Positions 8,374 through 29,345 of a DNA stretch of 55,868 nucleotides are shown here, piece after piece. Positions within the stretch are counted from its first letter, which is position 1. Each line of letters opens with the position of its first letter. Under the pieces are notes generated by a model. That model was not told the origin of the DNA, did no database searches, and saw nothing but the letters and a program-made list of their open reading frames with translations. Location of the stretch: the NCBI GenBank assembly GCA_964443815.1, contig CAYUFG010000001.1:1-55868 (forward strand), in the 5' to 3' direction. Position numbers and translations under genes: made by a program. Origin of the DNA: an uncultured Halobacteriales archaeon. GTDB lineage: Archaea > Halobacteriota > Halobacteria > Halobacteriales > Haloarculaceae.

Positions 8374-8396
8374 GCGGTGATGGCGCTACGGCGGGC

Positions 8397-9437: not shown

Positions 9438-9475
9438 TCACAACGCTTTTCGAGTCGCTGGCGGTGGTGACGGCC

Positions 9476-10581: not shown

Positions 10582-12480
10582 ATGCTCGACTCACTGTTCG
10601 ATCCGGTCACGGTCGGCGGTCTCGACCTCCCCAACCGGGTCGTCATGCCGCCGATGGTCACCCGGTTCGCCTCCGAGGACGGCTACGTGACGGACCGCAG
10701 CCGCGAGTACTTTCGCGAACGGGCCCGTGGGGGGACGGGCCTGATCGTCTTCGAGTGCACCTATCCCTGCGAGCGGCACCCACAGCGCCACTGGCTGATC
10801 GACGACTCCTACATCGAGGGCCTCTCGTCGGTCGTCGACGCCGTCCACGACGAGGGCGGCACGCTCGCGGTGCAACTGAACACTCACCGCGCGACGAGCG
10901 ACGAAGTCGAGCCTCTCGCGCCCTCGGCGATCGAGCTACCGGAGGGCGGGACCGCCGACCGCATCTCACGCGAGCGCATGGTCGAGCTCGTCGCCGAGTT
11001 CGCGGCGGGCGCCGACCGTGCGAAACGGGCCGGCTTCGACGCCATCGAGATCCACGCCGCCTCGGGCTACCTCGTCCAGCAGTTCCTCTCGCCGCGGACG
11101 AACCGGCGGGACGACGACTACGGCGGCGACCTCGAGGGCCGGACGCGGTTCGCGCGGGACTTGCTCGCTGCGGTCCGGGACGAGGTGGGCCGGGACTTTC
11201 CGGTCTGGTTCCGAATGCCGGGCCACGAGTTTCTCGAGGGGGGTATCGATCCCGACGAGGCGACGCGAATCGGCCGCCGCCTCGCCGACGCCGGCAGCGA
11301 CGCGCTCCACGTCACCGCCGGCCACGTGTGGAACAACGGCCACATCGTCATCAACGGCCACGACGAGCGGGCTATCTACGCCGACTACGCGGCGGCCGTT
11401 CGCGAGGCGGTCGACGTGCCCGTCATCGCCGCGGGTCGGATCAACGACCCCGAACTCGCCGACGACCTGATCGCCGAGGGCAAGGCCGACCTCACTGCGA
11501 TGGGTCGAGCTCACATCGCCGATCCGCACTTCGTGCGGAAGGCCGAAGCCGGAAATCTCGACGGCGTTCGTCGCTGCGTCGGCGGCATGGAGGGCTGTCG
11601 CGACCTCGTCAACGGTAACCCCGTCACGTGTACGGTCAACCCGCGTGTCGGTCGCGAGGGCGAGTCGGTCGAGCCGGCGGCGGATCCGACGTCCATCGCC
11701 GTCGTGGGCGGTGGCCCGGCGGGCCTGGAGTTTGCCCGCTGGGCGGCCCGTCGCGGCCACAGCGTCACCGTCTACGAGGCGGCGTCTCGTCTCGGCGGCC
11801 AGCTCCGCTGGGCACAGCACGCACCGGGCAAGCGGGAGTACGCCGAGCTGTTGCGATTTCTCGAGACGGAACTCGACCGGGAGGGCGTGGCCGTCGAGAC
11901 GGGAGCCGAGCTCGAGGCTGCCGACGTCGAGGCGCTTCCCGCCGACACCGTCGTCGTCGCCACCGGCAGTGCGCCGGCGGTGCCGACCATCGAGGGCATC
12001 TCCGACGCGATCGCCGATGGTCGCGTAGTGACGCCGGAGGACGTCCTCACCGGCGACGCGGACATCGGGACCGCACTCGTACACGGTGCGAGTGAGATCG
12101 GCGTCGACACCGCCGAGTACCTCGCGGATCGCGGCGTGGCTGTGACGATCGTCTCACCCGGGAGGCTCCTCCCCGAGCGCTACACCGAGGGTGAAGGCGT
12201 CACCTCCCGGGACCGCATCCTCGCCAGCCTCGGCGAGCACGATCGCGACATCGAGACCATCGAACACGCCAGTCTGCAGGCCATCGAGGACACCACGGCG
12301 CGTGTCATCGACGTCGACGGCGAGGAACGATTCGTCGCGTTCGACGAGCTCGTCATAGCTGGCGAGCGCCGACCCCGATCGCTCGACGTCGAGGACGCCG
12401 TCGTCATCGGCGACGCCGAGACGCCGAGCGACCTCTACACCGCCATCCACGAGGGCGCCCGCCTCGGCCGCTCCATCTAG
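10582..12480 (+). CDS. Old-yellow-enzyme (NADH:flavin oxidoreductase) domain fused to an FAD/NAD(P)-binding domain; 2,4-dienoyl-CoA reductase (FadH)-like
   Basis: I start at ATG 10582 (MLDSLFDPVTVGGLDLPNRVVMPPM...). The OYE TIM-barrel motifs are GFDAIEIHAASGYLVQQFLSPRTNRRDDDYGG. The linker RRCVGGMEGCRDLVNGNPVTCTVNP aligns to the FadH Fe-S motif. It is followed by IAVVGGGPAGLEFA (Rossmann fold). Confidence 0.85.
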   Translation: MLDSLFDPVTVGGLDLPNRVVMPPMVTRFASEDGYVTDRSREYFRERARGGTGLIVFECTYPCERHPQRHWLIDDSYIEGLSSVVDAVHDEGGTLAVQLNTHRATSDEVEPLAPSAIELPEGGTADRISRERMVELVAEFAAGADRAKRAGFDAIEIHAASGYLVQQFLSPRTNRRDDDYGGDLEGRTRFARDLLAAVRDEVGRDFPVWFRMPGHEFLEGGIDPDEATRIGRRLADAGSDALHVTAGHVWNNGHIVINGHDERAIYADYAAAVREAVDVPVIAAGRINDPELADDLIAEGKADLTAMGRAHIADPHFVRKAEAGNLDGVRRCVGGMEGCRDLVNGNPVTCTVNPRVGREGESVEPAADPTSIAVVGGGPAGLEFARWAARRGHSVTVYEAASRLGGQLRWAQHAPGKREYAELLRFLETELDREGVAVETGAELEAADVEALPADTVVVATGSAPAVPTIEGISDAIADGRVVTPEDVLTGDADIGTALVHGASEIGVDTAEYLADRGVAVTIVSPGRLLPERYTEGEGVTSRDRILASLGEHDRDIETIEHASLQAIEDTTARVIDVDGEERFVAFDELVIAGERRPRSLDVEDAVVIGDAETPSDLYTAIHEGARLGRSI

Positions 12481-13241
12481 TGATCCGCCGGGAGAACGCC
12501 ACGCTTCTCGGCCTCCTCTCGGACGATGTCGGCGCTCTCGATCATGGTGTGCGAGCCGAGGATGCTCGCGATTTCGATCACCCCCGCGACCTCCGATGGC
12601 GTGGCACCGTGGTCGAGGGCACTTCTGACGTGCGTCCGGATGCCCGGCGTGTAGACTGTCGTCCCCGCCGCGTTGACAGCGACGTAGATGAGCTCCTTCA
12701 GTTTTGGCTCCAGAACTCCCTCCGTCCACGGGATCGCCGCGATGTCGAGATACCGCTCGAAGAAGGCGGCGTCCGTGGCGAGGATCGCCGCCAGCTCGTC
12801 GTCCCAGGATTCCACGGTGTCGCGGTACTCGTCAGCGAGACTCCCGTCGCCGGGGTCGGGCGCTTCCCCGTCGGAGACCTCCTCCGCAAGGACGGCAAAC
12901 CCCTCACGAGCACCATTGAAGCCGACGTCGCTCGTGATGAGAAGGACCTCGGTGAGTTCCTCGACGGTGGCGCCTTCGTCGAGGGCCTTGCCCACGTGGG
13001 CGCGAGTGCCGAGGTTGTAGAGGTGCGTTGTCGACGCGTCGATCGCCACGTGGACGAACTCCCGCTCTTTCGGCGCGAGCCCCGCCCGCTCCCAGGCGTG
13101 GCGCGTCAGCTCGCCGTAGGCCTCGAGCCACGCCGGCTCCAGGCGGAGGATGTCTTCGAAGTTGCCGGTCCAGTACCGGTTCTCGGTGTAGGCATCCTTG
13201 ACACGTCGCTGTTCTGCGGTCAGATCGTCTTCCGAGGCCAT
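12477..13241 (-). CDS. Carboxymuconolactone decarboxylase (CMD/AhpD-like) family protein, two-domain
   Basis: 254 aa with two repeats of the CMD pattern (KEREFVHVAIDASTTHLYNLGTRAHVGKALDEGATVEEL and KLKELIYVAVNAAGTTVYTPGIRTHVRSALDHGATPSEV). Confidence 0.8.
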   Translation of the reverse strand: MASEDDLTAEQRRVKDAYTENRYWTGNFEDILRLEPAWLEAYGELTRHAWERAGLAPKEREFVHVAIDASTTHLYNLGTRAHVGKALDEGATVEELTEVLLITSDVGFNGAREGFAVLAEEVSDGEAPDPGDGSLADEYRDTVESWDDELAAILATDAAFFERYLDIAAIPWTEGVLEPKLKELIYVAVNAAGTTVYTPGIRTHVRSALDHGATPSEVAGVIEIASILGSHTMIESADIVREEAEKRGVLPADH

Positions 13242-13327
13242 GCGGGGAAGGCCCGCCCGTGAGCCATGAGTCTTGCGTCGGACCCCATCTGCGAGGAATT
13301 AAGGGTCCGTGCGGGGTTGACCGAGAT

Positions 13328-14536
13328 ATGCATTCTGAGTCCGGCGCGGGCATGCTCGACGGCATCAAGGTCCTCGACGTGACACAGGTCGTCGCGGGAT
13401 CGTTCGGGTCGATGCAGCTCGCGGATCTCGGCGCCGACGTCGTCAAGGTCGAACGCGTCGGCCGGGGCGACATCGGCCGGGGGTTCGATCCGTACGTCGG
13501 TGGCACCAGCGCGTACTTCGCCTCGGTCAACCGCAACAAGAAGTCGATCGCCCTCGACCTCAAGTCGGACGACGGCAGTCAGGCCTTCCTCGATCTCGCC
13601 GAACGTGCCGACGTCGTCGTCGAGAATTACCGGCCGGGGACCATGGAGTCGTTCGGCCTCGGCTACGAGGAGGTCAGCACGGTCAACCCGGAGATCGTCT
13701 ACTGCTCCATCTCCGGCTACGGCCAGACGGGGCCATACGCCGAGTACCCCGCCCTCGACATCATCATCCAGGCCTTCGCTGGCAACATGTCGATCACGGG
13801 CCCGGGGGACGGACAGCCCTACCGCGCCGGCGCGCCGATCGCCGACATCTCCGGGTCGATGTACGCCGCCCAGTCGGTCATCGCGGCGCTCTTCGAGCGC
13901 GAGCGCACCGGCGAGGGCACCTATATCGACGTCTCGATGGCCGAGAGCATGATCTCCTGGCTCACCGTCCGGGCGGGGTGGTCTTTCGGGACGGGCGAGC
14001 CGTACCCCCGGAAGGGGAACGAACTCGACGAGTTCGTCCCCTACGGGGTCTACGAGTGCGCCGACGGTTACCTCGCGATCTGCGCCGTCCAGGACCACCA
14101 CTGGGACAGGCTCGCCGACGCCATCGGCCGACCGGAACTCGGCGACGACGACCGATTCGAGACCGCAGACGACCGCCGGGCGAACCGCGATGAGGTGAAC
14201 GCGATCCTCGACGACGCCCTCGCGGACGAGACGGCGCGGGACCTCTTCGACGAACTCGCCACACAGAACATCCCCGCGGCGCCGGTTCACGACACGCTCG
14301 AGATCTGGGAGGACGACCACGTCCAGGCCCGGGGCCTGCACACGACCGTCGAGACGCCCGACGGCGGCGAGATCGACGCTATCCGGCACCCTGTTTCCTT
14401 CGAAGGTACGTCGAAGGAACTCCCCCGTGGCGTCGCTGCCCTCGGCGAGCACACCCGTGAGGAGCTTGCCGCGGCGGGCTATTCCGACGACGAGATCGAC
14501 GAGATCCTCGAGTCGGGTGCGGCCGGCGAGCCCTAG
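13328..14536 (+). CDS. Family III (CaiB/BaiF) CoA-transferase
   Basis: GIKVLDVTQVVAGSFGSMQLADLGADVVKVER and SISGYGQTGPYAEYPALDIIIQAFAG are signature segments of family III CoA-transferases. The start is ATG 13328 or the Met at 13352 (MLDGIKVLD). Confidence 0.9.
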   Translation: MHSESGAGMLDGIKVLDVTQVVAGSFGSMQLADLGADVVKVERVGRGDIGRGFDPYVGGTSAYFASVNRNKKSIALDLKSDDGSQAFLDLAERADVVVENYRPGTMESFGLGYEEVSTVNPEIVYCSISGYGQTGPYAEYPALDIIIQAFAGNMSITGPGDGQPYRAGAPIADISGSMYAAQSVIAALFERERTGEGTYIDVSMAESMISWLTVRAGWSFGTGEPYPRKGNELDEFVPYGVYECADGYLAICAVQDHHWDRLADAIGRPELGDDDRFETADDRRANRDEVNAILDDALADETARDLFDELATQNIPAAPVHDTLEIWEDDHVQARGLHTTVETPDGGEIDAIRHPVSFEGTSKELPRGVAALGEHTREELAAAGYSDDEIDEILESGAAGEP

Positions 14537-15324
14537 AGCGTCGACGCGTGTGAACCGCCGTTCACGAAGATGGCGTCGCCGTTGATGTACCCCGCGCGGT
14601 CCGAGCAGAGGTAGGCGACGGTGTCGCCGAGTTCGATCGGGTCGCCCATCCGGTCGACTGGAATCCCCTCAGCGCGGAGTTCTCGCCCCTCGTCGTAATC
14701 GGCGATCTCGCCCTCCTCGATCATGCGGTCGAAGCCGCGGTAGACCCGGGGGCTCTCGTAGGCACCCGGCATGATCGTATTGGCGCGAATCTCTGGAGCG
14801 AGTTGCTCGGACAGCACTTTCTGGATGCCCGCGACGGTCATCCGGACGGAGCTGGAGAGGACGTTCGCGGTGCTGGCCTCCTTGATGATCTGTGAGGTGA
14901 TCGCGACGACGGAACCGCCACCGTCTGCCTCGAGGTGTGGGGCCGCCTCCCGGACCGTCCGGACGACCGGCATCACCAGCAACTCCCAGGCGTCGTTCCA
15001 ATGCTCGTCGTCGGTTTCGAGGAACTGGAGCCGGGGTGGCCCGCCTGCAGACGTAACGAGGTGGTCGAGCCGGCCGAACTCATCGACCGTCGTCTCGACC
15101 AATTCTGCCGGCGTGTCTGGATCGGTGATGTCGCCGGTCACCGCGACGACATCGCCGGTGGCGACGTCCTCGATCTCCGCTCGGGCTTCCTCGAGCGATG
15201 CTTCCGTTCGGCCGTTGATCACCACGTCGGCGCCCTCCCTGGCGAGCGCCGTCGCTGCGCCTTTGCCCAGGCCGCCGCTCGATGCGAGCGTCAGTGCTGC
15301 GGTGTCCTCGAGTCCGAGGTCCAT
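14533..15324 (-). CDS. SDR-fold oxidoreductase, divergent active site
   Basis: 263 aa with a Rossmann motif (ASSGGLGKGAATALA) and ...IRANTIMPG.... Where classical SDRs have YxxxK this protein reads SSSVR, so the chemistry may differ. Confidence 0.8.
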   Translation of the reverse strand: MDLGLEDTAALTLASSGGLGKGAATALAREGADVVINGRTEASLEEARAEIEDVATGDVVAVTGDITDPDTPAELVETTVDEFGRLDHLVTSAGGPPRLQFLETDDEHWNDAWELLVMPVVRTVREAAPHLEADGGGSVVAITSQIIKEASTANVLSSSVRMTVAGIQKVLSEQLAPEIRANTIMPGAYESPRVYRGFDRMIEEGEIADYDEGRELRAEGIPVDRMGDPIELGDTVAYLCSDRAGYINGDAIFVNGGSHASTL

Positions 15325-19101: not shown

Positions 19102-21066
19102 CTACCCAGCGGCTCGTTCGATCCGGACCGTCCGGTCCGGCCCACGGACGAGGGTGTCCGCCGCACTTGCGTCGATGGCCACTGTCCCCCGGCGGATGGC
19201 GTCGTCGACGTGAGCGCTGGCAACGATGTGGCCGGAGTCAGAACGGACGATCACGCGGTCGCCGTCTGTGATCGACCGTGTCTCGGCGTCGGCCGGGTGG
19301 AGATGTAATCGTTCGTCGCCGCTGCCCTCCACAGCGAAGCCGCCGATGCGACTCGTCACCACCAGTTGTAGCCCCTCTCCGTCGGTAGGCCCACGCCGTG
19401 TCTCGACCGGGACGAACTCGGCGCGCCCGTCGGCGGTGTGGAACCGATCAGTGTAGAGAACGTCCGTGCTGGCCCCGTCGTCGGCCGGCCACCGGACGCC
19501 ACGTGGCTCGATGCTGACCTCGGCGTATGGTGGACAGACTTCCTGCATCTCGGCAAACGCATCCGCCGGTCGATCGAAGTCGAACGCCCCGGTGAGCTTG
19601 CGCCCGAGGGCCCGGAGTATCTCGAAATCCGGTTTCGTTCCCCTGGGGGCCTCGGCGATAGGGTGGATCGGCTGCACGAGTCGGTCGAGACTCGTGACAG
19701 TGCCATGCTTCTCCAGCCCGCCCGCGGCCGGAAGGACGACATCGGCGAAATCGGTCGTCCCGGTCGGAAACACGTCAACTACCACGAGTGCCTCGAGCGC
19801 TTCGAACTGCTCACGAATCCACGACTTCTCCCGCTTCTCCACGGCGGGGTTCTCCCCGACCGCGAGCACGCCATGCACACCGTCACCGAACGCCTCGAGC
19901 GACTCGCGCTCGTCCAACCCAGGACTCGCGGGAACGTCAGTATCCCACACCGAGCTCACAGCAGCCCGGGCCGTTTGATCCGTGACCGGTCGGTGACCCG
20001 GAAGCCGATCCGGTCGACATCCCATGTCCACCGCCCCCTGTTCGTTGTTCAGGCCCCGGAAGACGTTGAATCCGGTCCCGGGTCGGCCGACGTTTCCCGT
20101 CGCGAGCAGGAGATTCAGCAACGCGTCGGCCGTTCCGGTCCCGCCGTTTGGCTCCTCGATGCCGGTGCCGCCGACGACCGCAATGCGATCGGCACGTTCC
20201 AAACAGTCGACAGCCGACTCGACGGCCGACGCTGGGACGTCCGCTTCGGCCAAGAGCCGCTCCCGATCGAGGGATTCGAGTCTCTCGGCGAATCGAGGGA
20301 AGCCGTTGGTCCGTGTGGCTACGAACTCCCGATCGATCGCCTCGCGATCGAGTAGTTTGGCAGTCAGTAGGGTAACCACTGCCGCGTCCGACCCCGGGCG
20401 GGACGCGATGTGCTGGGTGGCGAGACGGGTGGTGTCGGTCTGCCGCGGGTCGACGTGGATCAGCGCCGTGTCGTCGTTGATCGCCGGCCGGATGTGGGAG
20501 TCGAACGCGATGGGTTGCTGGACGGCCGGATTCGCTCCGATGATCAGTATCGCGTCGGCTGCGCCGAGGTCAGTTAGCGAGTTCGTCATGGCCGGCCGGC
20601 CGAGACGCTTCGCCACCGCCGTCATCGACGAGCGGTGACAGCTCCTGGCGCGGTTGTCGACGTTGTTGGTTCCGAGGGTTCGCGCGAGTTTCTGAAGGAG
20701 GTAGTTCTCCTCGTTGGTACACCGCGGGGCTCCAAAGAAGGCCAATCCATCCGCACCGTGGGTGGCCCTGACCGCGTCGAGTTGCCGAGCGGCTCGGTCG
20801 AGAGCGGCCTCCCAGGACGTCTCGGTGAGTTCGCCGTTGCGACGAACCATGGGACTCGTCAGTCGATCGGCCGAATCGAACGCCGACGCCGCACGGATTC
20901 CCTTGGAACAGAGCCGGCCATCCGGATTCGCCCGACCCGGCACGCCGCGAACGCGCGTCGCGTCGTTCTGGGTAGAACTGAGCCGACAGCCGACCGAGCA
21001 GAACGGGCATACGGTCGACGAGCCCTCGTCTTCACTCATGGCGGGGTCAGTCCGCTCTTCGGTCAC
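19102..21066 (-). CDS. Molybdopterin (bis-MGD) oxidoreductase, formate-dehydrogenase-like, second catalytic subunit of the operon
   Basis: 654 aa. It has an N-terminal [4Fe-4S] motif (CPFCSVGC...C in RLCSKG), ENYLLQKLARTLGTNNVDNRARSCHRSS with a Cys-His dyad (Cys codon 20638-20640, minus strand), and a C-terminal MGD-binding beta-barrel (GDRVIVRSDSGHIVASAHVDD). There is no RR (Tat) leader. Its start overlaps the DUF1641 gene by 20 nt. Confidence 0.85.
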   Translation of the reverse strand: MTEERTDPAMSEDEGSSTVCPFCSVGCRLSSTQNDATRVRGVPGRANPDGRLCSKGIRAASAFDSADRLTSPMVRRNGELTETSWEAALDRAARQLDAVRATHGADGLAFFGAPRCTNEENYLLQKLARTLGTNNVDNRARSCHRSSMTAVAKRLGRPAMTNSLTDLGAADAILIIGANPAVQQPIAFDSHIRPAINDDTALIHVDPRQTDTTRLATQHIASRPGSDAAVVTLLTAKLLDREAIDREFVATRTNGFPRFAERLESLDRERLLAEADVPASAVESAVDCLERADRIAVVGGTGIEEPNGGTGTADALLNLLLATGNVGRPGTGFNVFRGLNNEQGAVDMGCRPDRLPGHRPVTDQTARAAVSSVWDTDVPASPGLDERESLEAFGDGVHGVLAVGENPAVEKREKSWIREQFEALEALVVVDVFPTGTTDFADVVLPAAGGLEKHGTVTSLDRLVQPIHPIAEAPRGTKPDFEILRALGRKLTGAFDFDRPADAFAEMQEVCPPYAEVSIEPRGVRWPADDGASTDVLYTDRFHTADGRAEFVPVETRRGPTDGEGLQLVVTSRIGGFAVEGSGDERLHLHPADAETRSITDGDRVIVRSDSGHIVASAHVDDAIRRGTVAIDASAADTLVRGPDRTVRIERAAG

Positions 21067-21649
21067 GCCCGAGGGCCTTCAGGAGGGCAACTCCGTATCC
21101 CAGGCCGGCACGAACGTCCGCATTCCGGAGGGAGCGGACGAACCCGAGGAGGCCGATCGACTGTCGATCCGCCTCCGGTTGGCGTTCGACTTCACCCACG
21201 GCCGCGAAGACCCGATTCATCCCCTGGATGGTGTCGCCGTCGAGCTCCAGGTCGGCCGCCAGCTTCGTCAGCGCGATCAGTTCCTCGAGGTCCCCCGACC
21301 GCTCCAGTTCGACGAGTCGTTCGGTGATCGACGCGAGTGCGTCTCCATCCTCGCCCACCCGTTCGGCGAGCGTGGCCGTCTGCTCCGTCGTGAGGCCATC
21401 CGCGGCGTTCGTCAACGCGACGAGCGAGTCGGTCACGTACTCGACGTCCTCGTCGTCGGCACTGGCCAGCACGAGGATCGCCGTCTCGAGGACCTCCACG
21501 AGTTCGTCAGTGTGTTCGATCGCCGCTGCGTACTCGTCGCCGTATTCGGCCAGGGCTGCCCGCAGCGCGGCCTCGCCGTCACCCACGGTACTCGCCTCGC
21601 GGTTCGTGGCTCCGGTCGGAACCGTGCGGTCGGGATCAGCCACTGACAT
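21047..21649 (-). CDS. DUF1641 domain protein
   Basis: I start at ATG 21649 (MSVADPDR...), giving 200 aa, very acidic. The C-terminal IGLLGFVRSLRNADVRAGLGYGVALLKALG matches the DUF1641 signature as I remember it. It overlaps the upstream fdhA stop by 14 nt and the downstream start by 20 nt. Confidence 0.7.
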   Translation of the reverse strand: MSVADPDRTVPTGATNREASTVGDGEAALRAALAEYGDEYAAAIEHTDELVEVLETAILVLASADDEDVEYVTDSLVALTNAADGLTTEQTATLAERVGEDGDALASITERLVELERSGDLEELIALTKLAADLELDGDTIQGMNRVFAAVGEVERQPEADRQSIGLLGFVRSLRNADVRAGLGYGVALLKALGRDRRAD

Positions 21650-23906
21650 CACCCTCTGGGGCAGCCGATCCATCCCCGCCAGCGTCCGCCTCGGCCGGCG
21701 AGACGCGGACCGCCGAAACCTTGTACTCCGGTGTCGCCGCTGCATCGTCGAGCGACTCCTCGTCGGTCAGCCGGTTGACTGCCGTTTCGGCGAAGTGGAT
21801 CGGCACGAACACCGTCCCTTCGCCCACGCGGTCGGTGACCTGCGCCGGGACGACGATCTCGCCCCGCCGTGATTCGACGCGGACCGATTCGCCATCCCCG
21901 ATGCCGTACCGGTCGGCCACCGCGGGATGAATCTCGACGAAGTCCTCACCGGTGTAACCCATCACACCCGCCTCACGGTGGGTCATCGTGCCGGTGTGGT
22001 ACTGGTAGAGGACGCGACCGGTCGTCAGTGACAGCGGATACTCGTCGTCCGGTGTTTCGCGTGGTTCGCTATAGCCGACGGGTTGGAGGTGTGCGAGGCC
22101 GTCGTCGGTGTGGAACTCGTCCTCGTAGAGTCGTGTCGTCCCCGGGTGATCGAGCGAGTGACAGGGCCACTGAAGGGGTGCGTCGTCGACCACCCGTTCG
22201 TGTGAGACGCCGCCGTAGATCGGTGTCAGTTCGCGGATCTCCGCCATGATCTCGCCGGTGTCGTCGTAGTCCCAGTCGCGGCCGAGGCGACGGGCCAGCT
22301 CCGAGAGGATCACCCAGTCGGGCTTGGAGTCCCCCTTCGGCTCCATCAGCTTGTTCACCTTCTGAACGGTTCGATCGGTGTTGGTGAACGTCCCTTCCTT
22401 CTCGACGAACGAACACGCCGGTAGGACGACGTCGGCGTACTTCGTCGTCTCGGTCACGAACAGATCCTGTGCGACGAGGAAGTCCAGCTCCTCGAGGACG
22501 GATTCGGCGTGGTTGATCCCCGGCTCCGAGAGGGCCGGGTTCTCGCCGATGACGTACATCCCGCGGAGGTCACCGCGGTCCGCGGCGTGGAACATCTGTG
22601 TCGTGTAGTGACCGTATGTGGGTGAGATCTCGCAGTCCCACGCCGCCTCGAACTTCTCGCGGACCTCGTCGTCGGCGATGTCCTGGTACCCGGGAAAGTT
22701 GTCCGGGAGCGGGCCCATGTCACCCCCGCCTCCCTGCACGTTGTTCTGACCGCGGAAGGGTGAGACGCCTGCGCCGACCTCCCCGAGGTTCCCCGTGACC
22801 GCGGCGAGGTTGCCCATCGCCATCACGTTCTCGGTGCCGTGGGCGTGCTCCGTCAGACCGAGGGTCCACCCGAACACGCAGGTATCCGCGGCGGCGATGG
22901 TCTCGGCCGCTGCGGCGATTTCTTCGGCCGGCACCCCCGTGACGGCTTCGACCCGCTCGGGGGTGAACTCCGCCACGGCTTCACGCATCGCTTCGAAGCC
23001 ACGTGTCCGCTCGGCGACGAACTCCTCGTCCTGAAGGTCGTGTTCGACGATGTAGCGAACGAGGCCGTTGATCCAGACGGCGTCGTAGCCGGGTTTGATC
23101 TGGGAGTACTGCGTGGCCCACTCGGCGATCTGGACTTCGCGTGGGTCGAACACGAGCAGGTCCGCGTCGCCCTCCCGGACACGCTGTTTGATCCGGGTCG
23201 CGAGCACCGGATGGGCCTCCGTCGTATTCGAGCCCGTCAGGAGGTAGCAGTCGGTCTCCTCGAGGTCCTCGACGCTCACCGAGGCCGCCCCGAACCCGAA
23301 CATCCGGGCGAGTGCGGCGACGGTCGACGAGTGACACAGCCGGTTGCAGTTGTCGACGCTGTTTGTGCCCAGCACCTGCCTGGCGAACTTCCCCATCAGG
23401 TAGTTCTCCTCGTTGGTCGCCTTCGAGGAGGCGATGACCGACAGCGCATCGCTGCCGTGCTCTCGACTGATGGATTCGAAGCCGTCGACCACCCGTTCGT
23501 AAGCCTCCTCCCAGGTGGCCTCGCGGAACCGGCCGTCGTCGTCACGGACGAGCGGCGAGGTCAGCCTGTCGTCGTGATCCACGAAGTTGTAACTGAACTT
23601 GCCTTTCACGCACGTCGAGATGCCGTTGACCGGTGCGTTTCCCGCGTCGGCCGGTCTGGCCCCGAGTATCTCGGTCCCGTCGGAGACGAGTTCGAACCGA
23701 CAGCCGACGGCACAGTAGCCACACGTCGTCTCCGCGAGTGTGAGGTCGTCGATGCGCTTCTCCCCGATCGTCGTCGCGATGTCGAACAGCTTCCCCTCCG
23801 ACATCGTCCCCGCCGCAGCCCCCTCCAGAACCGACTCGACGTTTCGCAGCGCCTGGTCTTTCGCCTGCTGCATGTAGCCCGCGACACCCTCCGGCTCGTG
23901 GCTCAT
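21636..23906 (-). CDS. fdhA: Formate dehydrogenase alpha-type molybdopterin catalytic subunit (Cys type)
   Basis: 756 aa. Motifs are TCGYCAVGCRFE...C (STCVKG) for the [4Fe-4S] cluster, ENYLMGKFARQVLGTNSVDNCNRLCHSSTV (Cys codon TGT at 23334-23336, not TGA), FRGQNNVQG, and a C-terminal MGD-binding domain (GESVRVESRRGEIVVPAQV). There is no Tat motif. It has an ATGA start/stop overlap with the upstream Fe-S gene. Confidence 0.9.
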   Translation of the reverse strand: MSHEPEGVAGYMQQAKDQALRNVESVLEGAAAGTMSEGKLFDIATTIGEKRIDDLTLAETTCGYCAVGCRFELVSDGTEILGARPADAGNAPVNGISTCVKGKFSYNFVDHDDRLTSPLVRDDDGRFREATWEEAYERVVDGFESISREHGSDALSVIASSKATNEENYLMGKFARQVLGTNSVDNCNRLCHSSTVAALARMFGFGAASVSVEDLEETDCYLLTGSNTTEAHPVLATRIKQRVREGDADLLVFDPREVQIAEWATQYSQIKPGYDAVWINGLVRYIVEHDLQDEEFVAERTRGFEAMREAVAEFTPERVEAVTGVPAEEIAAAAETIAAADTCVFGWTLGLTEHAHGTENVMAMGNLAAVTGNLGEVGAGVSPFRGQNNVQGGGGDMGPLPDNFPGYQDIADDEVREKFEAAWDCEISPTYGHYTTQMFHAADRGDLRGMYVIGENPALSEPGINHAESVLEELDFLVAQDLFVTETTKYADVVLPACSFVEKEGTFTNTDRTVQKVNKLMEPKGDSKPDWVILSELARRLGRDWDYDDTGEIMAEIRELTPIYGGVSHERVVDDAPLQWPCHSLDHPGTTRLYEDEFHTDDGLAHLQPVGYSEPRETPDDEYPLSLTTGRVLYQYHTGTMTHREAGVMGYTGEDFVEIHPAVADRYGIGDGESVRVESRRGEIVVPAQVTDRVGEGTVFVPIHFAETAVNRLTDEESLDDAAATPEYKVSAVRVSPAEADAGGDGSAAPEGDVSG

Positions 23907-24829
23907 GGCCAGTCACGCTCCGGGTCGTCGGAGCCACGGTCCGGCTGTGGCCGCTCGTCGGCATCGTCTCGTTTCTTGGGCGTCATCGGACCCTTGGGGG
24001 AGTCGCCGGACTCGACCGTCGCCCCAACACTGTTCGTCTGTGTGAAACCCGGGAGCGGGATGGTCGTCGCGTCGACGAGGCCGGTCTCGACCATCGCGCC
24101 GGTCGGACACACTGTCACGCAGTGCCCACAGGAGACACAGGTCGACCCCTCCATCGTTTCCGCGTCGCTCTGGAACCCGATCCGCGTGTCCCGGCCCTCG
24201 CCCTCCATCCGCAACACCCCCTCGACCTGCACGTCGTTACAGGCCTCCACGCACCGGTTACAGAGGATGCACTTGTTCCGGTCGATCTGGATGAATGCGG
24301 AGGTATCGTCGATCGGTTCGTACTCCTCTTTCCTGTCGAACACGCCGAAGCGTGGCTCCTCGACTTCCGCATCGATCGCCGCGTCCTGGAGCTCGCACCG
24401 CCCGTTCTTGCCACAGGTCGTACAGCGCAAGTTGTGGTCGGAGAGGACGAGATCGAGATTGACGTCTCGCGCCTCGGATGCGTCAGGGTCGTCGGTGCGA
24501 ACGACCGCGCCGTCGGTCGCGGGGTAGCTGCAGGCCGGGACCACCCCCGCTGTCTCCGTCCGCACCATACAGGTCCGACACTCGCTCCGTGGGCCGATTC
24601 GATCCTCTGCCGCGTGGTCGTAGTGACACAACGCGGGCACGTCCGCGGCCGTGTCGACCGCCTCGATCGCGTCCAGGATCGTCGAACCGGTGGGCACCTG
24701 GACGTCCTGGCCATCGACCGTGACGGTGGCCGGTGCGTCCGAGCCGACAGCCGGATCGGTCGCCGTCCCGGGTGTGATGGTCTCGGTCAGTGGTGGAACG
24801 TCGTCGGGCCGCCCGGGATCCGAGCTCAT
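23903..24829 (-). CDS. NuoG N-terminal-like Fe-S subunit ([2Fe-2S] + His/Cys3 [4Fe-4S] + 2x[4Fe-4S] ferredoxin), the split-off N-terminal module of NAD-type FdhA
   Basis: 308 aa. The cluster motifs are PALCHYDH...SECRTCMV...PACSYP (2Fe-2S), DHNLRCTTCGKNGRCELQ (HxxxCxxCxxxxxC), CILCNRCVEACNDV and CVSCGHCVTVCPTGA. The C-terminal tail of about 50 aa is low-complexity and acidic. Confidence 0.9.
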   Translation of the reverse strand: MSSDPGRPDDVPPLTETITPGTATDPAVGSDAPATVTVDGQDVQVPTGSTILDAIEAVDTAADVPALCHYDHAAEDRIGPRSECRTCMVRTETAGVVPACSYPATDGAVVRTDDPDASEARDVNLDLVLSDHNLRCTTCGKNGRCELQDAAIDAEVEEPRFGVFDRKEEYEPIDDTSAFIQIDRNKCILCNRCVEACNDVQVEGVLRMEGEGRDTRIGFQSDAETMEGSTCVSCGHCVTVCPTGAMVETGLVDATTIPLPGFTQTNSVGATVESGDSPKGPMTPKKRDDADERPQPDRGSDDPERDWP

Positions 24830-24869
24830 GGGCGACCTCCGGGGACGGTCCAGCCGAGAGGGACTGGAC

Positions 24870-26351
24870 TCATCCAGTCACCCCCGACGATTGGTCGCAA
24901 ACGCCCGCCGGACAGCGACCTGCCGCGTGGGCGTGGAACTCGTCCGCGAACCGCTCCAGCGCCGTCCGGGCCGGGCGTGGCACGTCGCGGCCGAACTGGC
25001 AGATACTCGATCGCTCCATAACCCGCGCGAGTTCGTCGATCTGATCGGCGGGGACCGTCCCGTCGTAGACACCGCGGAGCAGTTCGGCGAGTTGGGTCGA
25101 CCCTTCCCGACACGGCACACAGCGACCGCAGTTCGTCTCAGACGCCCACTGCGTTCGCTTCCCAGCGAAGGCGACGACACACCGATCCGTGGTGAGCACC
25201 TCCATGGTTGCCTCCGTCCCGAGCCCGGCCGACTGGAGGGTATCCACCCCGATGGCTGTGTCGAGGGCGGCCGTGAGTCCGCCGAAGCGTCCACCGACGC
25301 AAACTGCCTTGACTTCGCCCTCGACGGGCGTCACCTCGAGAGCGGTCTCGATCGGCTCGGTCGGTGGAAGCTCGATGATTGCCTCCGCGGCGACGTCGCC
25401 CGTCACGTTCAGCACCCGTGTGTCACCTGCTCGATCTCGGCCGCTAGCGGCGATGGCTGCCAGTGTCCGCGGGGTGTGAACCAGCGTTGGCCGCCCATCG
25501 ATCCCGGTCGACGCGGGCCCGGGCGGTCTGAGCCGTGCTTCGAGGCGGTCCGCACCCTCGATCGATTCGACGGCCATGGTCGGTTCGGCGGCCCGGTAGC
25601 GATCCGGCCCCGATTCGATCCTGACGTCGAGTTCACCGGGGAACGCATCGACCGCGTCGGCCAGGCGCTCGCGCACACGCTCGGCGCTCGCGGCGGTGTA
25701 CACGATCACCTCTGTGGAATCGATGGCCGACGCGGCCACCGCCGCTCCGTCGAGAATCGCGAACGGATCGCTCGAGACCAGAAGTTCGTCACAGGCACTC
25801 CCGTGGGCGTTCACGACGACCACGCCGGCGCCGGCCGCGTCCCTCGCCTCTCGCCAGTACGGTGCGAGGGGTTCCCCCGACGCGAGATCACCCCAGCCGC
25901 GTCCCTGCTGGGCATCCGCGAGGGTGAGAGCTGACTCCACGTTGACGGCTGAACTCACGAACCCACCCGCAGCACGGTAGTCGGCGGCGGCGTCGGGCCG
26001 CCGCCATCCACAACCCGAGAGAAGCCGTCGGTGGCCGACGCCAAGCGGCCCGCTGTTCGGAGCCGGAAGACCGATGGGAGTTGTGTCGTCGCTGACGGCA
26101 TCAGCCGCTGGAAGCTCACCGGTTTCGAGCCCCGATGCGATACCGTCGATTCGGTCGGCGGCGCAGTTGTGGTAGTAGACCGTTCGATCGTCGTGGGTCG
26201 CAATCACCAGCGGCTCGATGGCCGTGAGACCCGTCGACCCCACCGAAAGGACGGCTGCCGACGTCGCCGATCGTGCAGTTGAAGCCAGGTCAGGTGTCTC
26301 CCGTGCCGATGCGATCCGGAGTACCGGCGAGTCGGTCGCCGGCTCAGTCAT
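24870..26351 (-). CDS. FdsB/NuoF-like subunit with a conserved [4Fe-4S] motif but divergent FMN/NADH motifs
   Basis: 493 aa. ETNCGRCVPCREGSTQ...SSICQFG matches the NuoF N3 cluster motif. GPDRYRAAEPTMAVESIEGADRLEARLRPPGPA...PTLVHTPRT aligns to GAGAYICGEETALLESLEG...KPPFPA...PT.VNNVET. GRGWGDL replaces GRGGAGF, and NAHGSACD replaces NADEGEPG. Confidence 0.8.
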   Translation of the reverse strand: MTEPATDSPVLRIASARETPDLASTARSATSAAVLSVGSTGLTAIEPLVIATHDDRTVYYHNCAADRIDGIASGLETGELPAADAVSDDTTPIGLPAPNSGPLGVGHRRLLSGCGWRRPDAAADYRAAGGFVSSAVNVESALTLADAQQGRGWGDLASGEPLAPYWREARDAAGAGVVVVNAHGSACDELLVSSDPFAILDGAAVAASAIDSTEVIVYTAASAERVRERLADAVDAFPGELDVRIESGPDRYRAAEPTMAVESIEGADRLEARLRPPGPASTGIDGRPTLVHTPRTLAAIAASGRDRAGDTRVLNVTGDVAAEAIIELPPTEPIETALEVTPVEGEVKAVCVGGRFGGLTAALDTAIGVDTLQSAGLGTEATMEVLTTDRCVVAFAGKRTQWASETNCGRCVPCREGSTQLAELLRGVYDGTVPADQIDELARVMERSSICQFGRDVPRPARTALERFADEFHAHAAGRCPAGVCDQSSGVTG

Positions 26352-26521
26352 CGAGGTCTCCCCTGCATGTAATTGTCAACCGTGCACCCCCGCGGGCCAA
26401 AATAGTTTGGACGATGCTGCATCGACTCGTTGCCCCCGACGGTGGCTGGAAGCGGTTGACCCCGTCTCCCGTTCGGGGCTACCGGGAGCAGCCTTTTGCC
26501 GGTCCACCTCCAGGACTGGCC

Positions 26522-27724
26522 ATGACCCACGGGGACGAATCGGGGGCCGGTTCGACCGTCGACCTCGCCACGGCTCGGGACCGCTGGCTTCGACTCGTCT
26601 CCGAACACAGCCGTGTGGAGCGGGTGCCGGTCGAACGCGCAGCCGGACGCGCCCTTGTCGAGCCGATCGTCGCCGAGCGAGCGGTTCCACACTACGAGCG
26701 GGCCGCCATGGACGGCGTCGCCGTACGCGCAGGGGCGGTGGCCGAGGCCGATCTACCGGTCGAACTCGAGGTGACGACCGGGGGCGTTTTCCACGAGCAG
26801 GCGGTGCGGGTGAACACCGGTGATCCGATACCGGACGGTGCAGACGCGGTGGTGCGAGTGGAGCGGACACGACAGCGCGATGGACGGGTCGCGATCGAGA
26901 CGCCGACCGCCGTCGGTGCGAACGTCGCTCCGGTCGGCGAGGACGTCGAGAGCGGCGAGCAGCTCTACGAGGCCGGTAGCCGCCTCGATGCCGCGGATCT
27001 GAGCCTCCTCCAGGCGACGGGACATCACACGATCAGGGTCCTGGAGCCGCCGACCGTGAGCGTCATCCCGACGGGCGAGGAGCTCGTACCGCCGCGGGCT
27101 GAGCCGGGAGCCGGCGAGACGCCGGAGACCAACGGCCTGGCTGTCAGGACGCTCGTCGAGCGCTGGGGTGGGACCGCCAGCCACCACACCGCGATCAGCG
27201 ACGACCGGGCGCGACTCGTCGGGGCACTCGAGGCCGACCTCGACCACGACATACTCGTCACGATCGGTGGGAGTTCGGCCGGCGAGCGCGATATCGTGCC
27301 CGACGTCGTCCAGGATCGTGGCTCGCTGGCCAGCCACGGCATCGCGATCAAGCCGGGCCACCCCGCTGGATTCGGTCGTGTCGGTGAGACGCCCGTGCTG
27401 ATGCTACCCGGCTATCCGGTCTCGACCATCGTCGTCGCCGTTCAACTGCTCCGACCCGCGATCGCTTCGAGCGGCGGTTTCGAGCCGGACCCACTCCCGA
27501 CCACAACGTCTGTGCTCGAGCAGGCGATCGATGGCGCGGGCGACAGACGGCGCTTCGTTCGCGTCGCCCTCGACGGCGATGCGGTTACCCGCATCGACAG
27601 CGCCGGGGCGGGCGTGCTCTCGAGCGTCACGACGGCCGATGGATGGGTTGTCGTCCCCGAGGAGCGCGACCGTCTCGAGGCGGGGGAGACCGTCGACGTC
27701 GAGCACTGGCTCTGGCACGCCTAG
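26522..27724 (+). CDS. moeA: Molybdopterin molybdotransferase MoeA
   Basis: I start at ATG 26522, giving 400 aa. Motifs are ERAAMDGVAVR (the SxMDGYAV-type motif), VLEPPTVSVIPTGEELV, ILVTIGGSSAGERD and IAIKPGHP. This is the typical MoeA domain order. Confidence 0.85.
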   Translation: MTHGDESGAGSTVDLATARDRWLRLVSEHSRVERVPVERAAGRALVEPIVAERAVPHYERAAMDGVAVRAGAVAEADLPVELEVTTGGVFHEQAVRVNTGDPIPDGADAVVRVERTRQRDGRVAIETPTAVGANVAPVGEDVESGEQLYEAGSRLDAADLSLLQATGHHTIRVLEPPTVSVIPTGEELVPPRAEPGAGETPETNGLAVRTLVERWGGTASHHTAISDDRARLVGALEADLDHDILVTIGGSSAGERDIVPDVVQDRGSLASHGIAIKPGHPAGFGRVGETPVLMLPGYPVSTIVVAVQLLRPAIASSGGFEPDPLPTTTSVLEQAIDGAGDRRRFVRVALDGDAVTRIDSAGAGVLSSVTTADGWVVVPEERDRLEAGETVDVEHWLWHA

Positions 27725-27748
27725 CTCTTCACGTCAGCGCCGCCGGAG

Positions 27749-28546
27749 TCAGTCCGTCCACATCGTCGCCATCTCGGTCGACGAGTCCGGAAGCGCCTCG
27801 CGGAGCCTGGTACCGAACTCCGTAATGATATCGACTGCCTCGGCGTGGGTCTGAGCGGCGATCGCCACGAACGCGACGTGGCCCGATTCCTCGGCGAGTC
27901 TGGGGCGGTGGTGGGTCTCGACGGCAGTGAGCGATTCGTTGCCGTCGATTGTCCCTCGGCAGGTGTCGAGTGCCGCCTCGAGGTTCCGCCGCTGACGCCG
28001 GTCGAGCCACCCCTCGTGATCGGCCGTTGGCTGTGTGGCGACACAGGTGGCAATCGTGCTGGTGCGTTCAGAATCGATCGCCTCCCGAATGTCGCTGACG
28101 AGCGAGTCTCGCGTTTCGATCCCGTCGCAGCGATCGACACACGCCAGGGTGTCGCGGAGATCGATTGCGTCGACTCCAGGGGCTGTTGCGATGGCCCTGC
28201 CGGCGTGGTCTCGATCCCCGAGGACGACTGCCGGGACCCGTCCGTCGGTACTGTACCCCTCGATCAGCACGTACTCGTACTCGGGGGCGAGAGCGACCAG
28301 TAACTCACCGAGGTCGCGATCTCGACCTGTCGCGAACCACGATCCAGCCGGCATCACGCCGTATGTCTCCGCGGCGCCAGCCGCCCGGTGGCGATAGGTG
28401 TCTTTCCCCGGCTCGTCAATCTCTACCCGACAGTCGAGGTGTTTGACGGTTGCAACATCACCGCGCTCGGCGAGTTTCGGTACCAGTCGCTCGATCAGCG
28501 TGGTCTTGCCCGCATCCGACGGCCCGACGATTCGAAACGGCCGCAC
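27749..28546 (-). CDS. mobB: Molybdopterin-guanine dinucleotide biosynthesis protein MobB with a C-terminal extra domain of about 100 aa (MoaE-like?)
   Basis: 265 aa. It has a Walker A motif (GPSDAGKTT) and the MobB body (VATVKHLD...DEPGKDTYRH...YVLIEGY). The C-terminal part (...VETHHRPRLAEESGHVAFVAIAAQTHAEAVDIITEFGTRLRE...) resembles the MoaE HR.G.l..ge..v.vav...HR.eAf...id.lK segment from memory. Confidence 0.75.
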   Translation of the reverse strand: MRPFRIVGPSDAGKTTLIERLVPKLAERGDVATVKHLDCRVEIDEPGKDTYRHRAAGAAETYGVMPAGSWFATGRDRDLGELLVALAPEYEYVLIEGYSTDGRVPAVVLGDRDHAGRAIATAPGVDAIDLRDTLACVDRCDGIETRDSLVSDIREAIDSERTSTIATCVATQPTADHEGWLDRRQRRNLEAALDTCRGTIDGNESLTAVETHHRPRLAEESGHVAFVAIAAQTHAEAVDIITEFGTRLREALPDSSTEMATMWTD

Positions 28547-28760
28547 GTCGTTCCGTTCGCGCCGGTGGCTCTTTGCTCCACCGTCTCGTTAGTGCACTAC
28601 CGACGGAAGCCCGATCAGAACAGACGAAGCGGTGGCCACAATCCATGGGTGTATTTGCCGGCATACGCAGCGCTCGAAACGCGACGAGTGGTGCTGCTGG
28701 GTGGAGGGCGCAAGGGGGGAGATCTGCGCCCGGCCGAGTGCCCCTGACGGGAGGAACCGG

Positions 28761-29345
28761 ATGACCCGCCGTGCGATCGTCCTCGCGGGTGGCCAGAGCC
28801 GTCGATTCGGCGGCAGGGACAAGGCCCTCGCAAAGGTCGGGGGTGAACCGATGCTCCGTCTGGTCGGCCGGGCCGTGGGCGAGGCCACTGGCGCCCCACC
28901 GGTCGTCGCCGTCGGGTCCGCGGAGCGGGAAGCAACGTACGGCAGCGTTCTCGACTCTGCGGAGTTCGTTTTCGACGCTCCCGAGCCGGACGGCCCGGCC
29001 GGCGGCCTCGCGGCTGCTCTCGACCACACCACTGCCGAGTGGCTGTTTTTGTGTGGCTGTGACATGCCACATCTCGATCCTACGGCGATCGAGTGGTTGT
29101 TCGACCGGCGCGGAGACGCGGAGGCCGTCGTTCCAAAGTCCGATGAGTGGCGCCACCCGCTTCACGCGTGGTACCGCCGGTCAGCGCTCGAGCGTGCGCT
29201 CGACGACGAGCTGCGGCGATTACAGCAGCTCTGTGACACCATGTCAGAGACGGCGATCGTTGCCGTCGACGAGGCACCCGATTCTGTCCCGCTCGAGGCG
29301 TCGGTTCGGAACGTGAACACGCCCGACGAACTCGACCGTGAGTGA
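28761..29345 (+). CDS. mobA: Molybdenum cofactor guanylyltransferase MobA
   Basis: I start at ATG 28761, giving 194 aa. Motifs are AIVLAGGQSRRFGGRDKAL (the LAGGxSxRmG..DK motif) and FLCGCDMPHL. It is divergent from mobB across a 214-bp spacer. Confidence 0.85.
   Translation: MTRRAIVLAGGQSRRFGGRDKALAKVGGEPMLRLVGRAVGEATGAPPVVAVGSAEREATYGSVLDSAEFVFDAPEPDGPAGGLAAALDHTTAEWLFLCGCDMPHLDPTAIEWLFDRRGDAEAVVPKSDEWRHPLHAWYRRSALERALDDELRRLQQLCDTMSETAIVAVDEAPDSVPLEASVRNVNTPDELDRE

Follow-up and report, generated by a model that had tools for sequence, protein, structure and literature searches.

A conserved five-gene operon of haloarchaea resembling the ForCE formate dehydrogenase of Bacillus and containing a second, divergent molybdoenzyme gene

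The closest described relatives of the system considered here are the ForCE complexes of Bacillus subtilis. ForCE is a non-canonical formate:menaquinone oxidoreductase whose DUF1641 partner, ForE, is essential for the activity of the catalytic subunit ForC (PMC8808070), and structurally it is a ForC4E4 hetero-octamer (PMC13397495). DUF1641 proteins are now called helical membrane plugin (HMP) proteins; they form a tube through which quinone moves between a soluble oxidoreductase and the membrane (PMC13433803). In ForCE, menaquinone-7 (MK7) occupies a V-shaped pocket made by two amphipathic ForC helices (residues 223-257; PMC13433803). Haloarchaea use menaquinones (PMC5437934), and the oxidation of formate in their cytoplasm has been ascribed to a monomeric FdhA whose partners were guessed (PMC5437934, PMC6176080). 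Here, we analyse a stretch of 55,868 nucleotides from an uncultured Halobacteriales archaeon (contig CAYUFG010000001.1 of assembly GCA_964443815.1, positions 1 to 55,868; henceforth "the window"). It harbours an operon encoding a NuoF-like protein, an Fe-S subunit, the formate dehydrogenase (FDH) catalytic subunit FdhA, a DUF1641 protein and a second molybdoenzyme, designated Mo2 in the following. Instead of a monomeric FdhA, our analysis points to a multi-subunit enzyme conserved across the haloarchaeal class. With moderate confidence we propose from the encoded sequences that the operon specifies a ForCE-like, HMP-tethered formate:menaquinone oxidoreductase with a split catalytic subunit and a NuoF relic devoid of flavin mononucleotide (FMN), Mo2 being either attached to its Fe-S module or an independent enzyme.

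The five open reading frames (ORFs) are tightly packed on the minus strand at 19102-26351, within a window whose GC content amounts to 0.62-0.70. All of them were located where a first-pass annotation, made from the sequence alone, had placed them. ORFs, Pfam and NCBIfam matches and the sequence itself agree on the operon, its domains and its junctions, the start codons of Mo2 and of the DUF1641 gene being the points that needed correction. The features of the operon are as follows.

24870..26351, minus strand: NuoF/HydB-like Fe-S subunit, 493 amino acids (aa); Pfam Complex1_51K (weak, 40 bits) and NADH_4Fe-4S (70 bits); Cys-less thioredoxin-like N-domain, degenerate FMN/NADH domain, intact N3-type [4Fe-4S] motif, truncated C-terminus
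23903..24829, minus strand: Fe-S subunit, 308 aa; Pfam Fer2_4, NADH-G_4Fe-4S_3 and Fer4_7; equivalent to the N-terminal part of ForC, FdsA or NuoG
21636..23906, minus strand: FdhA, 756 aa; FDH catalytic subunit with Mo/W-bis-pyranopterin guanine dinucleotide (bisPGD), class CH...RGQ; TIGR01591
23742..23894, minus strand: N-terminal extension of FdhA (about aa 5-55), homologous to ForC residues 211-260
21047..21673, minus strand: DUF1641/HMP protein, ForE-like; 200 aa (from 21649) or 208 aa (from 21673)
19102..21039, minus strand: Mo2, 645 aa (a 654-aa ORF begins at GTG 21066); divergent molybdoenzyme of FDH fold, class CH...RGL-x-NEQG

A gap of 40 bp separates the NuoF-like gene from the Fe-S gene, which in turn overlaps fdhA by an ATGA. 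The DUF1641 gene overlaps the stop codon of fdhA, to which it is translationally coupled; its database model begins at 21673 and yields the protein of 208 aa. For Mo2 a start at ATG 21039 appears more likely than the upstream GTG because it agrees with the database protein (P0001) and with the alignment of homologues; it leaves a gap of 7 nt to the DUF1641 gene instead of an overlap of 20 nt. As had been read from the sequence before, the codon of the Mo-ligating cysteine is TGT in both catalytic genes (NRLCHSS in FdhA, where the ligand is Cys191, and RSCHRSS in Mo2), the next residue is a histidine in both cases, and neither FdhA nor Mo2 displays a twin-arginine motif at its N-terminus. The earlier statement that the window lacks NuoE/FdsG, FdhD and FdsD likewise stands, as none of them was found among its scanned ORFs. 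With respect to FdhD this says little since in B. subtilis, too, fdhD is unlinked to forCE (PMC8808070).

While the first-pass annotation had been unable to map the arrangement onto any characterised enzyme, the Fe-S protein, FdhA and the DUF1641 protein do map onto Bacillus ForCE, that is, YjgC/YjgD (PMC8808070; PMC13397495; PMC13433803). FdhA matches the Fdh-alpha model TIGR01591 with 798 bits (cut-off 666), and among proteins of solved structure B. subtilis YjgC (ForC1) matches it best, with 608 bits and an alignment that starts at ForC residue 211. The Fe-S subunit aligns to residues 5-212 of the same protein as well as to residues 6-244 of FdsA from Rhodobacter capsulatus. Since FdhA sets in at ForC residue 211 and the Fe-S protein covers ForC residues 5-212, the two genes correspond, as judged from these alignments, to one ForC/FdsA-type polypeptide split just behind the ferredoxin domain (ForC residue ~211). 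From its Cys/His motifs the Fe-S subunit is predicted to bind one [2Fe-2S] cluster, one His-ligated [4Fe-4S] cluster and, in a ferredoxin domain, two further [4Fe-4S] clusters. The cluster content of ForC is hence present, but it resides on a separate polypeptide of 308 aa instead of being joined to the catalytic domain. FdhA itself begins with ~55 residues that align to ForC residues 211-260 and thereby cover the stretch of the helices 223-257 which form the MK7 pocket. Haloarchaeal FdhA proteins of both operon types distinguished below (types A and B) conserve this segment strongly, while the match to R. capsulatus FdsA starts only at residue 58 of the window FdhA.

The DUF1641 protein matches PF07849 at its C-terminus with 38.6 bits (cut-off 21), and one member of its family has been named "helical membrane plugin domain-containing protein" by NCBI. 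Searching the PDB with the family profile returned sub-threshold matches to the HMP proteins YjlC and 9pxk_E (an NDH-2 coupling protein) besides a spurious match to a PPR-repeat protein. A helical membrane plug suggests coupling to quinone and membrane rather than a soluble complex, so that the notion of a soluble assembly put forward in the first-pass annotation is no longer favoured. By analogy to ForCE the complex is probably membrane- and quinone-linked and neither soluble nor NAD-linked.

The designation "FdsB/NuoF-like" had formerly implied an NAD-type enzyme, an implication that does not hold because the canonical FMN and NADH motifs are replaced in the NuoF-like protein. With the equivalog models for NuoF this protein scores 46-96 bits (cut-offs 389-749), and its closest relatives of solved structure are HydB, NfnB and HoxF of Bfu-type enzymes (118-128 bits), ahead of FdsB and NuoF. 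Compared to Escherichia coli NuoF the FMN loop GRGGAGF(S/P)TG has become GRGWGD within the family, GAG.YICGEETAL has become GP.EYRAAEPTMA and VNNVET has become VHTPRT. In addition, the NADH loop NADE.EPG is changed to NAHG with a deletion of four residues in the type A protein. All four replacements are invariant in the family of the window protein, as is the retention of the N3 cluster cysteines, whose motif NCGRCVPCREG...C is intact. In NuoF-like proteins encoded by type B operons the NADH loop (NANEAD) has neither been shortened nor lost its acidic residues, the other losses being common to both types. The thioredoxin-like N-terminal domain has lost its cysteines and with them the [2Fe-2S] cluster, and no NuoE/FdsG [2Fe-2S] subunit was found in the operon, among the scanned ORFs of the window or between the genes of related loci. 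Taken together, the sequence motifs lead us to infer that the NuoF-like protein is a conserved cluster-bearing relic of a HydB/FdsB-type subunit and not a canonical NADH:FMN module.

The C-terminus of the NuoF-like protein carries an invariant H-x2-G-R-C-P-x-G-x-C motif (aa 475-485; 24870-24914), with the polypeptide ending ~8 residues after C-P-x-G-x-C. In an alignment with HydB/NfnB-type subunits this motif coincides with the beginning of their C-terminal ferredoxin region, a domain which in these proteins holds two [4Fe-4S] clusters. Two cysteines and one histidine cannot make a cluster on their own; to judge from the motif, they may possibly form a metal site or provide a ligand to a neighbouring subunit.

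Mo2 is a second and distinct molybdopterin subunit of FDH type, as had been proposed from the first inspection: like FdhA it keeps the [4Fe-4S] cysteines, the Cys-His pair and the catalytic arginine. Invariant residues of the family are C11, C14, C18, C44, C134-H135 and R328, and a Lys or Arg following the fourth cysteine is kept. The motif CH...RGL-x-NEQG occurs in 85 of 85 sequences of Mo2 type and "CH" in 111 of 112 sequences. Formate dehydrogenases have been grouped into classes RGQ, RGH and RGE (I-III) by the Gln, His or Glu which follows Arg-Gly (PMC8808070); RGL fits none of these. Apart from the exchange of RGQ for RGL, changes found throughout the Mo2 family comprise NNVQG to NNEQG, HP to QP and, ahead of the Mo ligand, DxC to DNR, and the HYHTGTMT loop at the start of domain IV is deleted. 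The relationship to formate dehydrogenases is nevertheless evident from the sequence identity (30-36% to the FDH group, compared to 26% for FdnG and 24% for NapA), from a phmmer search against PDB chains (292-324 bits for the FDH group, 158 bits for NapA) and from an AlphaFold2 (AF2) model with a mean predicted local distance difference test score (pLDDT) of 80, for which FdhF, ForC and FdsA are the best predicted fold matches (template modelling (TM) scores of 0.81-0.84).

Mo2 does not cluster with any characterised family. It scores 479 bits with TIGR01591, below the cut-off of 666 (464-541 bits for its homologues), and 295 bits with the haloarchaeal NasA model NF041323, whose cut-off is 1000. 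In a neighbour-joining tree it is monophyletic in 96 of 100 bootstraps and lies outside the neighbouring FdhA clade and every reference group. The method draws the Mo2 clade towards the NuoG outgroup, which is probably due to long-branch attraction. Mo2 thus constitutes a clade of its own among enzymes of FDH fold, restricted to salt-loving archaea. Clustering of a representative library at 50% left only two full-length representatives with Mo2 motifs. The nearest non-Mo2 relative in this library, P0321 (694 aa; 740 bits to the Mo2 profile compared to 557 for the next), is a single-polypeptide FDH in which CH...RGQ and HP are canonical and the domain IV loop is intact. Its acid-rich composition suggests a haloarchaeal origin, and it plausibly represents the ancestor type of Mo2. 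The substrate of Mo2 is most likely formate/CO2, perhaps handled with a different metal or at a different potential, although this is a guess.

Other assignments of Mo2 were considered and discarded. Descent from a recent duplication of the neighbouring FdhA is contradicted by an identity of only 36% and by the separate clades. The gene order Mo2, major facilitator superfamily (MFS) transporter, MobA found in Halococcus (see below) resembles that of nasABC. An assimilatory nitrate reductase is, however, at variance with the score obtained for the NasA model, which reaches just 345 bits even for the stand-alone homologue from Halococcus, with the transporter, which belongs to the OFA/SfMCT family and is not NarK, and with the FDH-type Cys-His pair, in place of which E. 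coli NapA has Cys-Met. The GC content at third codon positions (GC3) is 0.77 in Mo2 and 0.75 in the NuoF-like gene, compared to 0.83-0.93 in the Fe-S gene, fdhA and most neighbours; the lower values may stem from weaker codon adaptation or from another history of these two genes. Decay of either gene to a pseudogene was rejected since ~50% identity is kept across genera and the cofactor residues are invariant.

To evaluate the conservation of the operon, two sets of loci amounting to 137 in total were fetched. The first scan, using one genome per species and seeded with the Mo2 family, yielded 57 loci from many haloarchaeal genera, and an independent metagenome scan seeded with the NuoF-like family yielded 80. 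All five genes are present in the same order and on the same strand in 66 of the 137 loci, many of the others being cut by contig ends. The DUF1641 gene is kept in 72 loci. Median intergenic distances range from 1 to 26 nt, with 1 nt between fdhA and the DUF1641 gene and 26 nt between the latter and Mo2. Within the Mo2-seeded set 36 of the 57 loci show the complete arrangement, and in five more the pattern is interrupted by a contig end. FdhA, with or without NuoF and Fe-S, is followed by Mo2 without DUF1641 in eight loci; NuoF-Fe-S-FdhA is divergent from Mo2 in one; Mo2 occurs alone in six, four of which belong to Halococcus; and one locus has an odd arrangement. As the order recurs in 66 loci from many genera with short gaps between the genes, the arrangement is far beyond chance, and the operon is real, old and under selection. 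This speaks against the concern, raised along with the first-pass annotation, that the five-gene order might not be conserved in relatives.

Among the loci of the NuoF-seeded scan two types can be distinguished, FdhA being at least 65% identical to the window FdhA in type A and 55-59% identical in type B. In type A, all 26 loci whose sequence extends far enough downstream have both DUF1641 and Mo2 behind fdhA. In type B neither of them follows in 15 of 16 loci, the remaining one containing Mo2 only. DUF1641 and Mo2 are consequently linked to each other and behave as a joint addition to a NuoF-Fe-S-FdhA core, and their co-occurrence favours a functional link. Mo2 follows FdhA in most genomes and does so directly in the variants that lack DUF1641 (L033, L034, L042, L100). 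The type B operons examined (e.g. L112, L113, L120, L124, L126) consist of the NuoF-like gene, the Fe-S gene and an fdhA of class CH...RGH followed by mobA; in some of them a CopD-like membrane protein comes after MobA, with DUF1641 and Mo2 both missing. One metagenome-assembled genome contains, at 9515-11548 of locus L054, a piece of the NuoF-like N-terminus (query aa 29-183) directly adjoining a Mo2 gene that lacks its 5' part (match from query aa 152); this is either a deletion/fusion variant or an assembly artefact.

According to the ForCE-like reading the operon would encode a cytoplasm-facing formate dehydrogenase peripherally attached to the membrane on the ForCE plan. Formate would be oxidised by FdhA at its Mo/W-bisPGD site (Cys-His...Arg), and the electrons would pass via the [4Fe-4S] cluster of FdhA into the separate Fe-S subunit. 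Menaquinone would then be reduced where the N-terminal helices of FdhA meet the HMP tube of the DUF1641 protein. The NuoF-like protein, as its motifs suggest, would probably terminate the Fe-S chain, either contributing a further cluster or serving as an adaptor. Since Mo2 is not extended at its N-terminus, it has no quinone-pocket helices of ForC type; if it belongs to the complex, which is a guess, it would have to deliver its electrons through its own [4Fe-4S] cluster to the shared Fe-S module.

Several observations weigh against this ForCE-like reading. The active site of FdhA is CH...RGQ (NRLCHSS, FRGQNNVQG) and not CQ...RGH, by which the ForC subfamily is defined (PMC8808070). The DUF1641 protein resembles ForE only over the short Pfam domain, and ForE was recovered neither by phmmer with the window protein nor by the family profile search of the PDB. 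Its AF2 monomer model, computed from an alignment of 23 sequences, is too poor for fold comparison (pLDDT 61, predicted TM score 0.33), and a Foldseek search of the PDB with this model gave no match below E = 1; a poor monomer model is, however, expected for a subunit which folds only in a tetrameric tube. The N-terminal segment of FdhA is also found in type B operons without an adjacent DUF1641 gene and, taken alone, is therefore no proof of HMP coupling. Furthermore, Bacillus ForCE possesses neither a NuoF-like partner nor a second Mo subunit, whereas the window contains both, and the NuoF-like protein may possibly bind flavin in a non-canonical way. Lastly, the loci with Mo2 alone imply that Mo2 need not be a subunit of the complex at all.

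This last point leads to an alternative that is compatible with a ForCE-like core and to which we assign a lower yet appreciable probability: the operon would code for two enzymes, Mo2 being an independent, FdhF-like monomeric enzyme (an FDH isoenzyme or one acting on a related small substrate) which employs a soluble partner, e.g. ferredoxin, and is merely co-transcribed. Its occurrence in six genome loci without NuoF, Fe-S, FdhA and DUF1641 agrees with this, as does its genomic setting in the four Halococcus loci, where it stands between an ABC (ATP-binding cassette) transporter and an OFA/SfMCT MFS transporter, MobA and MoaA. In size and architecture Mo2 corresponds to monomeric FdhF, which its modelled fold also matches best, the nearest non-Mo2 relative P0321 is a single-polypeptide FDH, the ForC-type N-terminal helices are missing, and adjacent cytoplasmic FdhA paralogues in Halodesulfurarchaeum have been treated as monomeric (PMC5437934). 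On the other hand, the joint presence of Mo2 and DUF1641 in type A and their joint absence from nearly all type B loci, the short gap between the two genes, and the position of Mo2 directly behind FdhA even where DUF1641 is lacking weigh against an independent enzyme. The opposite idea, one HMP-anchored complex which wires two different Mo/W sites (CH...RGQ in FdhA, CH...RGL/NNEQG in Mo2) to one Fe-S chain, appears unlikely to us. If true, the NuoF relic would dock the second catalytic subunit or a soluble carrier, and two half-reactions, either of formate/CO2 type or Mo- and W-dependent, could run against the menaquinone pool. Formate oxidation could in that case be coupled to a second Mo-dependent reaction, as speculated in the first-pass annotation.

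A soluble, NAD(P)+-reducing FDH of FdsAB type, whose NuoF-like subunit binds flavin and nicotinamide in a divergent pocket, seems rather improbable. It would account for the order NuoF-like, NuoG-N-like, FDH, which equals FdsB-FdsA, and for the CH...RGQ motif of FdhA, which is that of FdsA-type enzymes. The strict conservation of the altered pocket residues suggests that some ligand or partner binds there, and type B has preserved length and acidic residues of the NADH loop. Yet the FMN loop, the NADH loop (in type A), GEET and NNVET are all replaced, the equivalog scores fall far short of their cut-offs, no locus contains NuoE/FdsG, the thioredoxin-like domain is without cysteines, and the presence of a quinone-channelling HMP subunit does not fit such an enzyme. 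Still more remote, and in our view highly improbable, is a cytoplasmic FDH cooperating with the electron transfer flavoprotein (ETF) EtfAB in flavin-based electron bifurcation to ferredoxin and NAD+. Bifurcation of this kind has been proposed for sulfur-respiring haloarchaea (PMC5437934, PMC6176080), and EtfB-EtfA genes do occur directly upstream on the same strand in ~20 type A loci. That proposal, however, overlooked the NuoF-like, Fe-S and DUF1641 genes, Etf is missing from the window and from most loci, and where EtfBA are present they follow a dehydrogenase gene of dimethylglycine/sarcosine dehydrogenase (DMGDH/SARDH) type, a classical ETF donor, which explains Etf without any FDH.

Beyond the operon, the window contains a compact cofactor maturation cluster at 26522-29345 which had escaped the first-pass annotation. 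Its features, together with the region separating it from the operon, are the following.

26352..26521, no strand: divergent intergenic region between the operon start and moeA, presumed promoter region
26522..27724, plus strand: MoeA (molybdenum insertion into molybdopterin); Pfam MoeA_N, MoCF_biosynth and MoeA_C; start placed according to the Pfam domain position
27749..28546, minus strand: MobB-domain protein; Pfam MobB
28632..29345, plus strand: MobA-like NTP transferase (molybdopterin guanine dinucleotide (MGD) synthesis); Pfam NTP_transf_3, 113 bits; tblastn match to the MobA beside Halococcus Mo2

MoeA, MobB and MobA make up the set needed to finish bis-MGD. Hints at the substrate come from genes flanking the related loci. 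A monocarboxylate transporter of the OFA/SfMCT family is situated beside the operon or beside a stand-alone Mo2 in 16 loci. In the Halococcus loci (L026, L028, L031, L052; ~5300-15000) the order is ABC transporter, Mo2, OFA/SfMCT MFS transporter, MobA, MoaA, while in other genera the transporter lies divergently upstream of the five-gene operon. The shared transporter family fits a small carboxylate such as formate as common substrate. The ABC transporter next to Halococcus Mo2 is composed of a PBP_like_2 binding protein, two permeases and an ATPase.

In the ~20 type A loci with Etf genes (L010, L018, L019, L085, L088, L089, L092-L097, L102, L103, L116, L118, L127, L131) an 844-aa protein with DAO, FAO_M and GCV_T domains, followed by EtfB-EtfA, is encoded directly upstream of the operon on the same strand. 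This domain architecture is that of dimethylglycine/sarcosine dehydrogenases, which transfer the methyl carbon to tetrahydrofolate and the electrons to ETF. The arrangement suggests that a downstream FDH would complete the oxidation of the one-carbon unit, the formate arising from the catabolism of methyl groups of methylamine or betaine type, which are abundant in brines. The window itself contains neither the DMGDH/SARDH-like gene nor EtfBA.

Elsewhere, the window is unusually dense in catabolic genes. It contains five luciferase-like monooxygenase genes (254-1330, 2367-3392, 41946-42950, 48299-49306 and 49337-50662) and three genes for family III CoA-transferases (13202-14536, 40660-41988 and 44968-46227), interspersed with acyl-CoA dehydrogenases, enoyl-CoA hydratases, 3-hydroxyacyl-CoA dehydrogenases and several MFS transporters. 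An oxalate pathway as the setting of the CoA-transferase genes was considered and dismissed, as no oxalyl-CoA decarboxylase was found among the scanned ORFs of the window.

The FDH fold, the ForCE/HMP principle and NuoF-type subunits are of known kind. In the literature searched we found no description of the haloarchaeal five-gene combination, of the degenerate NuoF relic or of a CH...RGL class of FDH-like enzymes. The operon would bring the quinone-channelling HMP scaffold, so far demonstrated in ForCE and Ndh of Bacillus and in mycobacterial Huc, into the context of archaeal respiration. The NuoF-like protein offers a natural example of a NuoF-type subunit which is stripped of its flavin and NADH motifs and yet retained under selection. 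CH...RGL, in turn, represents a new active-site class within the FDH fold and provides a test of the role which the residue after Arg-Gly plays in formate/CO2 catalysis, a role flagged as unresolved by the authors of the ForCE study (PMC8808070).

Among known systems, the pair HTSR_1736/HTSR_1740 of Halodesulfurarchaeum formicicum (PMC5437934) is by its description similar to the window in comprising two neighbouring cytoplasmic genes of FDH type, both products of which appear in proteomes. They were described as monomeric FdhA copies, with no NuoF-like, Fe-S or DUF1641 subunit noted (PMC5437934). HucM of the Mycobacterium smegmatis Huc hydrogenase and YjlC-Ndh of B. subtilis have in common with the window protein a C-terminal domain of DUF1641 type and the tethering of a soluble oxidoreductase to the quinone pool (PMC13433803), but they serve other catalytic partners, and overall sequence similarity is very low. 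With E. coli FDH-H (FdhF) Mo2 shares the size, the four-domain fold (TM 0.81), a single [4Fe-4S] cluster, the Lys/Arg after the fourth cysteine, the Cys/selenocysteine-His pair and the catalytic arginine. It differs in RGL, NNEQG, QP and DNR, in the deleted HYHTGTMT loop and in falling below the TIGR01591 cut-off. HydB, NfnB and HoxF of the Bfu family (PDB 7T2R, 9N5U, 7Q4V) have a thioredoxin-like N-domain, an N3-type cluster and the beginning of the C-terminal CP..C region in common with the NuoF-like protein. In contrast to them it lacks the cysteines of the N-terminal [2Fe-2S] cluster, canonical FMN and NAD(P)H motifs and the C-terminal domain with two [4Fe-4S] clusters.

The NAD+-dependent FdsABG(D) enzymes of R. 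capsulatus and Cupriavidus necator (PDB 6TG9) agree with the window in the order of the modules, in the CH...RGQ motif and in the cluster set of FdsA. Unlike these, the window has no FdsG/NuoE and no FdsD, its equivalent of FdsB has lost the FMN and NADH motifs, and an HMP subunit as well as Mo2 are present. Compared to ForCE1 and ForCE2 of B. subtilis (YjgC-YjgD and YrhE-YrhD; PDB 8RQZ/8RR0), the window exhibits a split catalytic polypeptide, CH...RGQ in place of CQ...RGH, an HMP protein matching only over the short DUF1641 domain, and an archaeal host. What the two systems share is the succession of one [2Fe-2S] and three [4Fe-4S] clusters ahead of the FDH domain, a cytoplasmic location without twin-arginine signal, and a cysteine instead of selenocysteine as Mo ligand. 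Moreover, the DUF1641/HMP partner, adjacent and co-expressed in ForCE, has its counterpart in the syntenic DUF1641 gene of the window, and the window FdhA contains a region homologous to the helices which in ForC form the menaquinone pocket.

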